Positions 44,221 to 47,300 of a stretch of 64,000 nt of DNA are shown here, piece by piece. Position numbers and translations under genes: made by a program. The stretch is from Candidatus Eiseniibacteriota bacterium (GTDB lineage: Bacteria > Eisenbacteria > RBG-16-71-46): positions 71,013-135,012 of the forward strand of contig JACRIW010000020.1 in the NCBI GenBank assembly GCA_016215625.1. Reading direction: 5' to 3'. How positions within the stretch are numbered: position 1 is the stretch's first letter; the number at the start of each line of letters is the position of its first letter. Under the pieces are notes generated by a model, which searched no databases, was not told where the DNA came from, and worked only from the letters and a program-made list of their open reading frames with translations.

Positions 44221-44994
44221 ATGGACGTCCGCGCATTCAACGCTCAGGCGTGGGACCGGCTGGTCGCGATGGGCAATCGTTGGACGTTGCCGGTTTCTTC
44301 CGAGGAGATCGGGCGCGCGCGCGCCGGTGACTGGGCCGTGATCCTGACGCCGACCCGTGCGGTGCCGCGCGAGTGGTTCGGTTCGCTCGCCGGTCGCGAC
44401 CTGCTGGCGCTCGCTTCGGGCGGCGGGCAGCAGGCCTGCGTGCTCGCGGCGGCCGGGGCGAACGTCACGCTGCTCGACAACTCGCCCGCGCAGCTGGCGC
44501 AGGACCGCATGGTCGCCGAGCGCGACGGGCTGGCGATCCGGCTCGAGCGGGGCGACATGCGAGACCTGTCTCGTTTCGCAGATGCGTCCTTCGATCTGAT
44601 CTTTCATCCCTGCTCGAACGGCTTCGTGCCGGACGTGCGCCCCGTGTGGCGGGAGTGCGCGCGGGTGCTGCGGCCGGGCGGGCGGCTGTTGGCGGGAATG
44701 GTGAACCCGGCGCTCTACCTGTTCGACGAGGCGGAGGTGGACCGCGGCGAGTTCGTGGCGCGCTATGCGCTGCCGTACTCGGACATGGTCTCGCGCACGC
44801 CGGAGCAGCTGGCGCGCATGGCCGAAGCCGGCGAGCCCGTGTCGTTCGGGCACACGCTCGACGACCAGATCGGCGGGCAGTTGGAGGCCGGGCTGCTGCT
44901 GGCCGGGTTCTTCGAGGACCGCTGGGCGGAGCACCCGCTGGATCGGTTCTTCGCGCCGTGCTTCGCGACGCTGGCGGTGAAGCCGGGCGGGTGA
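44221..44994 (+). CDS. class I SAM-dependent methyltransferase
   Basis: GGAGG RBS, LASGGGQQ motif I, FDLIFHPCSN, RVLRPGG. Confidence 0.88.
   Translation: MDVRAFNAQAWDRLVAMGNRWTLPVSSEEIGRARAGDWAVILTPTRAVPREWFGSLAGRDLLALASGGGQQACVLAAAGANVTLLDNSPAQLAQDRMVAERDGLAIRLERGDMRDLSRFADASFDLIFHPCSNGFVPDVRPVWRECARVLRPGGRLLAGMVNPALYLFDEAEVDRGEFVARYALPYSDMVSRTPEQLARMAEAGEPVSFGHTLDDQIGGQLEAGLLLAGFFEDRWAEHPLDRFFAPCFATLAVKPGG
44898..44983 (+). repeat. direct repeat copy 1 (3' end of methyltransferase gene)
   Basis: 86 bp identical to 45989-46074. Confidence 0.95.
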
Positions 44995-45038
44995 GATTGG
45001 CATTCGGTCACATGCCGGGACCGCGACGAAATGAGTCC

Positions 45039-45066
45039 TTGTATGGACTCATGTGAATCGTACACT
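45039..45066 (+). promoter_or_regulatory. putative promoter of cassette A
   Basis: TTGTAT-16 nt-TACACT; same architecture at 46132-46159. Confidence 0.55.
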
Positions 45067-45112
45067 CCGAGTGGAGTCGAGTCTGCCGAGTTGGTCGTAT
45101 GAGAGGATGGGC

Positions 45113-45952
45113 ATGATCCGGATTCGCCCGATTCATTGTGCACTCCCCGTCTTGGTTTGCGCCGCTCTCTCGATCGTTGCGATGCGCGGGCACGCGCAGG
45201 CATCCCGCCATGCCTACCCCGCCGACCACACATTGGGAAGCGTGCACGGGGACACGATTCTCGTCTGGCCTGGTGGCGAATCGGTGGTCACTACGATCCA
45301 GCTCCTGGTCGGAACGGGAAATTCGATCGACTACATTCCTGATACGACGCTCGTTCTCGCCAGCGGCGAGACCCTTCGTGTCACGCCAACCAATCCTTCG
45401 GGTGCAGGGGACTACGTGCTTCCGGGCGATTGGAGGCTGAGCATTGGGAACGTGTCGAATCCGAGGCTGGTGAATATCTGGCGATACGGACGCCCAGCAC
45501 TCCTCTACTCGAACCTTTCCTCGCGCGACGTTGTTGCCCTCGTTCAACGCGGCGAAGCTCGGGAGTCCCTCTCGGTGGTCGCCAGCGCTTCGATGAAAGG
45601 CCTGGTCCATTTGCATCAGGCCTCTCGGCCGGGTTCACCCGACGCGGATTGGGAGCTGCAAGTCGTGCGAGACTCGGATGGGCAACTGGAGTTGCCTGAG
45701 GGTTGGTCCGAAATGACAGTGCAGTTTCTTGCCCTCAGAAGTTCCTCGCGTGCCCGAACCGGCGTGAGCGAACCGCCTGAAGGGCGCGAGCCGACTTCCG
45801 CAGGAGGGGCTTTGGCTTCACCCTCGTCACTCAACTCATCGCACGATCCAAAGCGGGACGAGATTCGGTTGCTCGGCGCCACTCCCATCGGACGACCGCT
45901 GGTCTTGAGGGCGCGCCCAGGAATCCGCGGCGGGTCCTACGTTCAAATGTGA
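45113..45952 (+). CDS. secreted hypothetical protein, cassette A (lower GC)
   Basis: GAGG RBS, signal peptide; shares TLRVTP, NPRLVNI..GRPAL.YS and LPEGW.EMTVQF blocks with 46245-47096. Confidence 0.72.
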   Translation: MIRIRPIHCALPVLVCAALSIVAMRGHAQASRHAYPADHTLGSVHGDTILVWPGGESVVTTIQLLVGTGNSIDYIPDTTLVLASGETLRVTPTNPSGAGDYVLPGDWRLSIGNVSNPRLVNIWRYGRPALLYSNLSSRDVVALVQRGEARESLSVVASASMKGLVHLHQASRPGSPDADWELQVVRDSDGQLELPEGWSEMTVQFLALRSSSRARTGVSEPPEGREPTSAGGALASPSSLNSSHDPKRDEIRLLGATPIGRPLVLRARPGIRGGSYVQM

Positions 45953-45988
45953 CGCATGGTGCCGCCCCTTCCCTCGCTACCCTTTGCA

Positions 45989-46080
45989 GCTGGCCGGGTT
46001 CTTCGAGGACCGCTGGGCGGAGCACCCGCTGGATCGGTTCTTCGCGCCGTGCTTCGCGACGCTGGCGGTGAAGCGGGGCT
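45989..46080 (+). repeat. direct repeat copy 2 (orphan methyltransferase 3' end, reads ...AVKRG then TGA)
   Basis: First 86 bp identical to 44898-44983; last 28 bp identical to 47186-47213. Confidence 0.95.
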
Positions 46081-46131
46081 GAGTAAATTGCCAGGCTCAG
46101 CCACATTACTAGACTTCCGCAGAATGAAGTC

Positions 46132-46159
46132 TTGTCGGCTCAAATGTGATCCGTACACT
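46132..46159 (+). promoter_or_regulatory. putative promoter of cassette B
   Basis: TTGTCG-16 nt-TACACT. Confidence 0.55.
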
Positions 46160-46244
46160 CGGGGTAGAGCCGAATCCACCACCTCGAACGCCAGTGGCGG
46201 CAATTGTGACCGACGAACTCCGACGTGGCCTCAGGAGGGCTGCC

Positions 46245-47096
46245 GTGAGGACGCTGATGACTCGACTGACAACCTTCATGATGCTCATCGTGCTTCTGGC
46301 CTTGTCTGCTTTCATGGCGAGTGCTGCCCCGCGCGAGCCCTCCGATCCTCTGTTTGATCAACAGGGCCCATTCCTTCTCACCAGTCAAGGCTTGGACACG
46401 GTCTGCGTCGAGCGTGTCGCTGAGGCCCGGACCGAGTTGGGCATGCTCTGGATTGGTGAGGCAAGCAACGAAATGGAGTTCAAGCTCTCCTCCGGCCAGA
46501 CTCTGCGCGTGACACCGAGCAGCCCCTCGGGGACTGGGGAGTACTCGCTCGCGGACGGCAGCCAAATACAGGTGGGCACTGCCAAGAATCCCCGGCTCGT
46601 CAATATTGTGAGATCGGGGAGGCCTGCCCTGGCTTACTCGGTGAGATCGACGAGAGGAATCCTCGCCTACGTTCGTTCGGGGGCGATGTCGTCTGAGGAA
46701 CTGGCGCGCACGGACGATTCGGTTCGAGACCTTTCCAAGGTCTTTCGGGCCGCGGGGCCGGATGAACTGGACGCTGCGAAGCCCGAACAACTTGTCGTCA
46801 TACCCTGGTCGTGGTTTGGGCGTGGCTCGCTGAGCCTGCCTGAAGGTTGGAGGGAGATGACGGTGCAGTTCTGCGCATTCGGTCGGGCCAGCCGGGAGCG
46901 TGCGACAGGCGAGGTGCGCTCAGATTTCAGCGAGGAGGCGATTCGGGAGGGAACATCAGGTGTTCGCCTGTCCGGCGAGGAGAAGGCTCTCGCCTCACCG
47001 AGCCAGACCAGCTTAGCGAGTGTGCAGCCAATCGGTCGCGCACTCCTCGTGCGTGAGCGAAGCCATACGACGGGAAGTGTCTCGCTCGTGCCCTGA
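46245..47096 (+). CDS. secreted hypothetical protein, cassette B (lower GC), paralog of cassette A
   Basis: AGGAGG RBS before GTG (alternative ATG at 46257), signal peptide, shared motif blocks. Confidence 0.75.
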   Translation: MRTLMTRLTTFMMLIVLLALSAFMASAAPREPSDPLFDQQGPFLLTSQGLDTVCVERVAEARTELGMLWIGEASNEMEFKLSSGQTLRVTPSSPSGTGEYSLADGSQIQVGTAKNPRLVNIVRSGRPALAYSVRSTRGILAYVRSGAMSSEELARTDDSVRDLSKVFRAAGPDELDAAKPEQLVVIPWSWFGRGSLSLPEGWREMTVQFCAFGRASRERATGEVRSDFSEEAIREGTSGVRLSGEEKALASPSQTSLASVQPIGRALLVRERSHTTGSVSLVP

Positions 47097-47185
47097 ATGC
47101 CGGCCGGCAGCAGGGCGCGGCTTCACGACCAGACACTGGCAGCGCTGCCATTCTCATGACGAGAGCCGGACATGCTGCCTCGTTG

Positions 47186-47213
47186 TTCGCGACGCTGGCG
47201 GTGAAGCGGGGCT
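47186..47213 (+). repeat. direct repeat copy 3 (28 bp)
   Basis: TTCGCGACGCTGGCGGTGAAGCGGGGCT, identical to 46053-46080; reads AVKRG then TAG. Confidence 0.9.
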
Positions 47214-47300
47214 AGAGGAAACGCGGCGCTTGCCGCTCGCCGCGCCCCGGCCTAGCTTGGGTCCGTCCGTCCTTCCACCCGTACTCCTCCGGAGCGCCGC

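Follow-up and report, generated by a model that had tools for sequence, protein, structure and literature searches.

The locus described here lies in a stretch of 64,000 nucleotides (nt), in the following termed the window, which comprises positions 71,013 to 135,012 of contig JACRIW010000020.1 of a Candidatus Eiseniibacteriota bacterium. The source genome (G000) has a size of 4.23 Mb and is 93%-complete; the window is part of its contig C106. At this locus, a gene encoding a class I S-adenosylmethionine (SAM)-dependent methyltransferase (MT) and a class V aminotransferase gene are separated by two consecutive cassettes of about 1.1 kb. Each cassette holds one gene for a putative secreted protein, termed Sp1 and Sp2, respectively, and behind each of them a stretch of the MT 3′-end recurs (Table 1).

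Table 1. Coordinates of the MT locus in the window.
Feature	Coordinates	Strand	Remarks
MT, class I SAM-dependent methyltransferase, intact, anchor gene	44221..44994	+	Pfam Methyltransf_11, E 1.1e-19
Repeat copy 1: final 86 nt of MT before the last codons; tail KPGG*, TGA at 44992-44994	44898..44983	+	KPGG* tail equals the MT end of G014
Cassette 1 leader; promoter-like block 45038-45067; GAGAGGA putative ribosome-binding site before ATG 45113	44995..45112	+	Block conserved between units
Sp1 (P0001), 279-aa putative secreted beta-rich protein, unnamed family	45113..45952	+	Signal-peptide-like N-terminus
Cassette 1 3′ flank, which runs up to the novel joint with copy 2	45953..45988	+	Joint in a 1065-nt source-run contig; unrelated to cassette 2 3′ flank
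Repeat copy 2: displaced 86-nt MT 3′-end with its own tail KRG* (TGA 46080-46082)	45989..46082	+	Tail and next bases resemble the MT end of G007
Cassette 2 leader; conserved block 46131-46160; GAGGA putative site before ATG 46257	46083..46256	+	Block conserved between units
Sp2 (P0002), 279-aa putative secreted paralogue; alternative GTG start 46245 would give 283 aa	46257..47096	+	Signal-peptide-like N-terminus; homology to Sp1
REP-like palindromic element, ~40 nt, around the perfect palindrome TGGCAGC/GCTGCCA, in cassette 2 3′ flank	47135..47175		Partial copies elsewhere
Repeat copy 3: 28-nt core with TAG stop (47213-47215), assigned as the ancestral MT end	47186..47215	+	With its downstream flank matches the empty site of G008
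Class V aminotransferase gene, conserved right-hand neighbour	47301..48827	+	Pfam Aminotran_5, E 1.3e-37

The 86 nt of copy 1 recur in copy 2 (45989-46074) without a single difference (86/86 identical). The core of copy 3 (47186-47213) is an exact match to positions 46053-46080 within copy 2, and when extended the match comprises 33 nt at 94% identity. Before the first difference all three copies have 22 nt in common, a constant core at every junction, and in copy 2 the core shared with copy 3 is preceded by another 58 nt that match MT exactly. Each copy terminates the reading frame with a stop codon of its own, the deduced ends being AVKPGG* (TGA), AVKRG* (TGA) and AVKRG* (TAG), respectively. 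These ends look like different natural alleles of the MT end, with counterparts in the related genomes G014, G007 and G008, respectively. The resulting units have a period of 1091 and 1133 nt, and the stretches preceding copies 2 and 3 show no relationship to each other (26% identity). A comparison with the bacterium's own genome, one of the checks proposed in the original prediction made from the sequence, located the repeat at these three places only, all at this locus. No attC-like hairpin was detected in the 86-nt repeat (fold z +1.32; 187 of 200 shuffled sequences fold at least as well), and an Rfam scan of positions 44000-48000 returned no match.

The two intervals differ from their surroundings in composition. 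Their GC content is 0.57-0.65 vs 0.68-0.77 in the flanks, and GC at third codon positions (GC3) amounts to 0.675 for Sp1 and 0.70 for Sp2, whereas it ranges from 0.89 to 0.945 in three neighbouring genes. Both leaders contain a conserved block of 30 nt (CTTGT..ATGTGA..CGTACACTC), of which the genome holds no further copy. Since the block falls below the threshold of a generic sigma-70 scan, we refer to it as promoter-like; together with the ribosome-binding site and the signal-peptide gene it would render each cassette a self-contained expression unit. The identity between the units is uneven, with 100% in the repeat, about 61% at the start of the leader (first 90 nt), 52% in the coding sequence and 26% in the 3′ flanks. 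At the protein level, Sp1 and Sp2 are 35% identical over 238 columns (E 1e-32). Taken together, the 86-bp repeat, the 28-bp core and the in-frame stops were as originally predicted in every particular checked, and the same holds true for the lower GC of the intervals and for two homologous, very divergent genes of an unrecognised family. Of the claim that each interval possesses its own promoter and one signal-peptide gene, the genes and the conserved block stand, while the promoter itself remains putative.

Orthologues of MT (60-95% identity) were obtained from 15 of the 40 related genomes searched, and all 15 loci were examined. The last ~150 nt represent the best-conserved stretch of the gene in the genus: nt 601-750 are 94-98% identical to G008, G007 and G014, compared with about 79-91% for nt 1-200. 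In 8 of the 15 loci the aminotransferase gene is located downstream of MT. The site is empty in two members of the same genus that are among the closest relatives, G008 (MT 95% identical) and G007 (93%), where the two genes are separated by about 88 and 87 nt, respectively; the distance is 190 nt in G014 and 218 nt in G009. With unrelated genes between MT and the aminotransferase gene, the gap extends to about 1.1, 2.0, 2.6 and 3.9 kb in the more distant congeners G006, G001, G010 and G013, respectively. The interval of G010 encodes a PD40 beta-propeller protein and, on the other strand, a secreted open reading frame (ORF) of 245 aa, that of G001 a secreted protein of 594 aa with a FlgD_ig domain, and those of G006 and G013 other unrelated genes. 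The sequence of G008 across the MT stop codon and the intergenic region matches copy 3 of the window together with its downstream flank. Thus, copy 3 corresponds to the ancestral MT end, and positions 44984-47185 to inserted DNA.

Alone among the 15 related loci, G010 likewise carries a downstream partial copy of MT. Behind the PD40 gene, 212 nt of the MT 3′-end recur at 96.7% identity (locus L034, G010:C22, 6625-6880 and 8351-8606). Outside the genus, 80 MT loci of other lineages were fetched, 18 of which were left out owing to an incomplete MT match or less than 1 kb of downstream sequence; none of the 62 testable loci, from other lineages and phyla, contains such a copy.

The palindromic element in the 3′ flank of cassette 2 resembles repetitive extragenic palindromic (REP) sequences. 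Partial copies of it are located on contigs C18, C119 and C103 of G000, and we obtained 12 matches in G014 and 4 in G008, with one of the G014 copies falling within the same MT-aminotransferase interval. As the palindrome is multi-copy throughout the genus, the likeness of the G014 interval to positions 47135-47175 was dropped as evidence, and G014 is not considered to harbour a remnant of a cassette.

The arrangement was further inspected in contigs assembled at k=31 from the sequencing runs. In the graph of the source run, which stems from groundwater, the MT contig (depth 10.8) leads into an 86-nt node (depth 30.6), from there into the contig of the Sp1 unit (11.1), back into the same node and then into the Sp2 contig (12.7). 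The near-equal depths of the three unique segments fit one tandem path. Moreover, the joint between the Sp1 3′ flank and the sequence of MT position 44898 is contained in a 1065-nt contig of this run, which covers positions 44954-46018. Hence, the joint is real sequence, and Sp1 is indeed followed by a partial copy of MT. From a further run of this study, a contig of 240 nt was obtained that extends from position 45983 through the repeat into the Sp2 leader, with 6 nt on the left side of the repeat.

A different form of the locus is suggested by run X3, which stems from an unrelated study and habitat (wastewater). Here, pieces of the Sp2 cassette are almost identical to the window (0/281 and 1/183 differences, and 3 substitutions and 1 gap in 190 nt), whereas the MT and aminotransferase flanks differ at 21/379, 16/250 and 22/275 positions (5.5-8%); the Sp1 unit is without cover. 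The contig depths are similar (2.2 to 6.5), and it is plausible that the contigs derive from one organism. These data fit a strain that would harbour the Sp2 cassette alone, with a cassette much younger than its flanks. The uncovered parts of two further runs, X2 and X4, are low-depth gaps and were not counted as evidence. With the empty sites in congeners, the form that fits Sp2 alone in X3 and the two cassettes of the window, the number of cassettes at this locus varies between 0, 1 and 2. The variable locus that had been predicted is therefore borne out.

The signature, a cassette bounded by a copy of the end of the upstream gene, recurs in genome G084 with another duplication length. On contig C298 (locus L062), a gene for a LuxR-type response regulator terminates in 24 nt, counted with the stop codon, that reappear 1001 nt further downstream at 96% identity (1004-1027 and 2005-2028). 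A lipoprotein gene of low GC lies between the copies, as does a fragment of 71 nt with 92% identity to the neighbouring Sp-like gene, and the sequence following the second copy is homologous to the native downstream region of the regulator in G085. Both the 24-nt duplicate and the 28-nt core of the window start with TTCGCG and end with GGGGCTAG, with a 13-nt gap between the two. Across the four cases, the duplicated ends are thus 24, 28, 86 and 212 nt long.

Sp1 and Sp2 are mutually closest known relatives. A full HMMER scan of 1.84 billion representative proteins revealed seven distant relatives besides the two proteins of the window; P0010 (1346 aa), which matched in 8 short stretches (E 7.8e-5), was left out of the analysis. 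None of the nine members matched a Pfam family. A profile built from Sp1, Sp2 and the seven relatives detected the family in 5 of the 206 genomes of the phylum, G000 included, and all five belong to one taxonomic family. In none of the other genomes does an Sp locus adjoin MT. No member was found in the 15 other genomes of the genus, and none of the 15 MT loci encodes a relative. An AlphaFold2 model based on nine sequences, of moderate confidence, is mostly composed of beta-strands (predicted local distance difference test, pLDDT, 62.9; predicted template modelling score, pTM, 0.54). The Foldseek comparison, likewise proposed at the outset, gave no match to the PDB at E <= 0.001, and the protein atlas contained no usable match, its own model having a pLDDT of 0.33. 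Searches with the Sp profile A2 in metagenome contigs, species genomes and viral contigs revealed no further cassettes or vector, and nothing was found when metagenome contigs were searched for the pattern of the MT core, 60-90 nt and CGTACACT, or plasmids for the whole cassette DNA.

By their GC3 and the patchy distribution of the family, the Sp genes appear to be foreign to the host genome. The Sp proteins may have accessory functions in the envelope or outside the cell, each being expressed from a promoter of its own. The gathering of other secreted proteins at the same place in congeners suggests that exported accessory functions are selected at the MT-aminotransferase hotspot, and the patchy, foreign-looking distribution points to a role in a niche or in an interaction.

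With respect to mobility functions, no tyrosine recombinase (PF00589) is encoded on contig C106 and no match to serine recombinases (PF00239) was obtained in the whole genome, in line with the original prediction, which saw no integrase in the window. Tyrosine recombinases are encoded elsewhere in the genome, on contigs C66 (two), C40 and C46. The ORF lists of the inserts in G001, G006, G010 and G013, four ORFs of which were checked by profile, show no integrase-bearing element at MT. A k-mer scan of the genome for local repeats returned 259 segments; five other candidates were inspected and all of them lie in tandem paralogous genes, so that no other locus of this kind was found among the candidates inspected.

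On balance, we lean towards reading the locus as a 3′-end displacement array, in which horizontally acquired DNA would have been inserted twice in succession, each time anchored by homology. In the ancestral state, MT with the KRG* end and a TAG stop codon would have been followed directly by the aminotransferase gene. In a first event, DNA comprising an MT 3′ fragment, a leader and Sp2 may have recombined with the resident gene via the conserved MT end. The homologous side would have restored an intact MT, while on the other side an illegitimate joint, or one based on very short homology, would have formed 28 nt ahead of the resident stop codon, leaving the old final 28 nt behind the cassette as copy 3. 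In a second event, DNA with an MT 3′ fragment of the KPGG* type, a leader and Sp1 would have acted likewise, either as a linear piece with one homologous end or as a circle sharing at least about 86 nt with MT and integrating by a single crossover. As a consequence, the 86 nt that ended MT at that time would have been pushed downstream as copy 2, together with the Sp2 cassette. A dedicated recombinase would be unnecessary for either step. Since the MT 3′-end is highly conserved, the site would be reusable, and as each insert would bring along the MT end of its donor, different MT-end alleles are to be expected. The varied lengths of the duplications, the 58 nt that precede the core in copy 2, the unrelated arms, the lack of a fold in the repeat, the absence of further core copies from the genome and the lack of a nearby recombinase are what one-sided homology predicts. 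The empty sites of G008 and G007, the uneven identity between the units, their foreign composition, the Sp2-only form that fits X3, the depths in the source run and the precedent at toxin loci likewise speak for this reading.

Several observations weigh against such a route. A homology of 28 nt is very short for RecA-type recombination, and the first event therefore requires an illegitimate joint or a rare crossover at short homology. A donor genome with a native MT-Sp1 or MT-Sp2 arrangement was not found, the Sp2 form in X3 alone coming close. When the MT of G000 was tested for mosaicism against G008, G007, G014 and G001, no clear donor tract emerged, and none that marks donor DNA upstream of position 44898. 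The partial copy in G010 differs from its MT by 4 synonymous and 5 non-synonymous changes, and this codon test does not show divergence inside a working gene. In X3 the near-identical tract extends to the last position of the 28-nt core and no further (loose end after 47213), as a site-specific crossover would likewise predict. With regard to the assembly, the read evidence consists of the k=31 contigs and not of raw reads, and no single record bridges the 86-nt repeat with at least 31 letters on both sides. Finally, ComEC (PF03772) was not found in the 93%-complete genome.

An alternative, which would also account for the end of the X3 tract at the core, is that the units are integrase-less cassettes inserted site-specifically, akin to satellites or to cis-mobilizable elements (CIMEs). 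Their attP site would hold the last codons of MT, and a tyrosine recombinase acting in trans, provided by the host, which encodes such enzymes on C66, C40 and C46, or by a helper element, would target the ~22-nt core and lead to tandem accretion. This would account for the core common to all three junctions, for the in-frame stop codon regenerated by each copy and for the empty site in relatives. It would also be consistent with the homology of the two units, which begins at the stop codon and extends over leader and gene as expected of related elements, and with the start and end that the G084 duplicate shares with the core. According to PMC7563491, elements devoid of recombination genes that keep their att sites and are stacked at gene 3′-ends have been documented. 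However, a crossover in the core does not produce the 58 nt of exact MT sequence that precede it in copy 2, and the would-be attP arms left of copies 2 and 3 are unrelated. Moreover, the same gene carries a 212-nt duplicate with unrelated cargo in G010, the genome contains no further copy of the core that could represent attP, and neither C106 nor the ORF lists of the four inserts revealed a recombinase or an integrase-bearing element. The partial copy is likewise absent from the 62 MT loci across phyla, and a single recombinase footprint could not accommodate the 13-nt gap by which the cores of G084 and the window differ. We therefore regard site-specific insertion as unlikely.

A broader version of this idea regards the ~1.1 kb units as minimal cassettes of a class not described so far, equipped with a promoter but devoid of an integrase. 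Conserved genes, such as MT in the window and the LuxR-type regulator in G084, would offer them a short core at the stop codon as a target; a recombinase in trans would carry out the insertion and the end of the host gene would be regenerated, which would amount to a chromosomal accretion system distinct from integrons. We hold this to be decidedly unlikely. The att-like site of the original prediction is weak in view of duplications of 28, 86 and 212 nt, the unrelated left arms, the 58 extra nt, the missing fold and the missing nearby recombinase, and its undescribed cassette-accretion system is probably not one, as the architecture matches described 3′-end displacement. The proposed repeated capture of cargo at a regenerated MT 3′-end, on the other hand, is supported, MT being intact after each stepwise addition.

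The collinear units, homologous over their full length with a near-equal period, and the mutual relationship of Sp1 and Sp2, neither of which has a closer known relative, could also reflect a tandem duplication in situ that comprised the MT 3′-end, the leader and an Sp gene. The cargo would then have diverged fast, while gene conversion from the selected MT end kept the 86 nt identical. Yet the cargo proteins are only 35% identical, while the closest congeners (MT 91-95% identical) lack any Sp gene, so that extreme divergence would be needed together with a loss from each of the other 15 genomes in the genus. Instead of the even divergence expected along a duplicated unit, 100% identity in the repeat is faced with 52% in the coding sequence. 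Furthermore, the atypical GC3, the three MT-end alleles and the 28-nt third copy are left unexplained, as is the Sp2-only form, a near-identical cassette in divergent flanks that is partly seen in X3 at the same joints. In agreement with the original view that a simple old tandem duplication does not fit, we consider this scenario very unlikely. An assembly artefact, by which the 86-nt node in common would have led two strain variants, or a strain and a small circle, into one tandem path, is scarcely credible: the node is indeed separate at k=31, with two entries, two exits, no contig that bridges it with at least 31 letters on both sides and more than twice the depth of its flanks, but the 44898 joint lies within the 1065-nt contig, the depths of the unique segments are equal and the 240-nt contig of the second run, albeit with 6 nt on its left side, passes through the repeat.

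The surroundings of the array were inspected as well. Upstream of MT, positions 37784-44116 of the window contain a minus-strand cluster that includes a carbamate kinase gene (AA_kinase, E 2.9e-23), and, by the look of their translations, other products of this cluster are presumably a molybdopterin dehydrogenase, an M20-type peptidase and a carbamoyltransferase-like protein. Directly after the aminotransferase gene, positions 48845-50224 (minus strand) comprise a gene resembling those of HNH endonucleases (Pfam HNH, E 4.5e-4, slightly short of the cut-off) and, upstream of it, an ORF of 275 aa without a family. In G007 the counterparts are 97% and 86-100% identical, respectively, the 275-aa ORF being matched in three pieces, and in G008 there are divergent partial matches only (66% over 50 aa and 41% over 111 aa). 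This region looks like a second variable spot. Elsewhere in G000, long local direct-repeat series are present on contigs C78 (about 14.6-40.6 kb, period about 2.7 kb) and C93 (about 19-24.5 kb, period about 1.44 kb), whose appearance suggests tandemly arranged paralogous genes.

Displacement of a gene's 3′-end has been described for polymorphic toxin loci. The respective studies attribute arrays of displaced Rhs tips to homologous recombination with circular intermediates (PMC2935791) and propose homology-facilitated illegitimate recombination for effector-immunity arrays of the secretion system of type VI (T6SS) (PMC5361080). In such orphan-tip arrays of Rhs, CdiA and T6SS loci, acquired DNA replaces the 3′-end of a conserved upstream anchor gene, and the old end is shifted downstream together with its companion, so that the newest module is nearest to the gene. 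Likewise, MT is followed by 86-nt and 28-nt copies of its own end, each behind a cassette and each with an in-frame stop codon; the modules appear to be laterally acquired, and the length of the array varies between strains. In contrast to the toxin arrays, including those of contact-dependent growth inhibition (CDI) systems, the anchor is an ordinary SAM-dependent methyltransferase, the swapped tips comprise only 3-4 codons and no domain, and the cargo consists of a putative secreted-protein gene with a promoter-like block rather than a toxin tip with its immunity gene. In addition, there are two units only, and the lineage is Candidatus Eisenbacteria.

Minimal mobile elements (MMEs) are defined (PMC3082526) by conserved flanking genes that enclose different whole-gene cassettes in different strains and by the lack of mobility genes of their own. 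The MT-aminotransferase interval, which is empty or occupied by unrelated cargo depending on the congener, agrees with this definition and resembles the MMEs of Neisseria in this respect. Of an incorporation by homologous recombination in both flanks, following the uptake of DNA, the near-identical cassette in divergent flanks in X3 would be indirect evidence. However, MMEs are swapped by a double homologous crossover and leave no nested partial copies of a flanking gene, and natural competence in the lineage studied here is putative: DprA (PF02481) is present on contig C4, and ComEC was not found. CIMEs, which derive from integrative conjugative and integrative mobilizable elements, are presented in PMC7563491 as integrase-less units bounded by direct repeats and arranged in tandem at gene 3′-ends, the most decayed ones lying farthest from the target gene. 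The constant 22-nt core at the 3′-end of MT is in keeping with this description. Unlike CIMEs, which keep true att sites, the units display repeats of varying length and unconserved ends, there is no integrase in cis, and no related integrase-bearing element was seen. With integron cassettes they share the head-to-tail order of single-gene units of ~1 kb; in contrast, no IntI is encoded next to the array, the repeat, which lacks an attC-like fold, is the coding end of a conserved gene, and each cassette has its own promoter-like block.

Taken together, the locus is best filed as a variant of 3′-end displacement, or as an islet of the MME type, in an unusual gene context and lineage. It preserves stages of the process, namely the empty site, one cassette and two cassettes, and the mechanism is therefore testable with long reads from the same habitats. 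At the same time, the analysis defines a rare family of putative secreted beta-rich proteins that occurs sporadically in Eisenbacteria. Our results suggest that the route by which polymorphic toxin loci displace an old 3′-end and stack old cargo can also give rise to small arrays of genes for accessory secreted proteins behind an ordinary, conserved gene, and that such arrays may arise in a candidate phylum known from metagenomes only, without a dedicated mobility gene.

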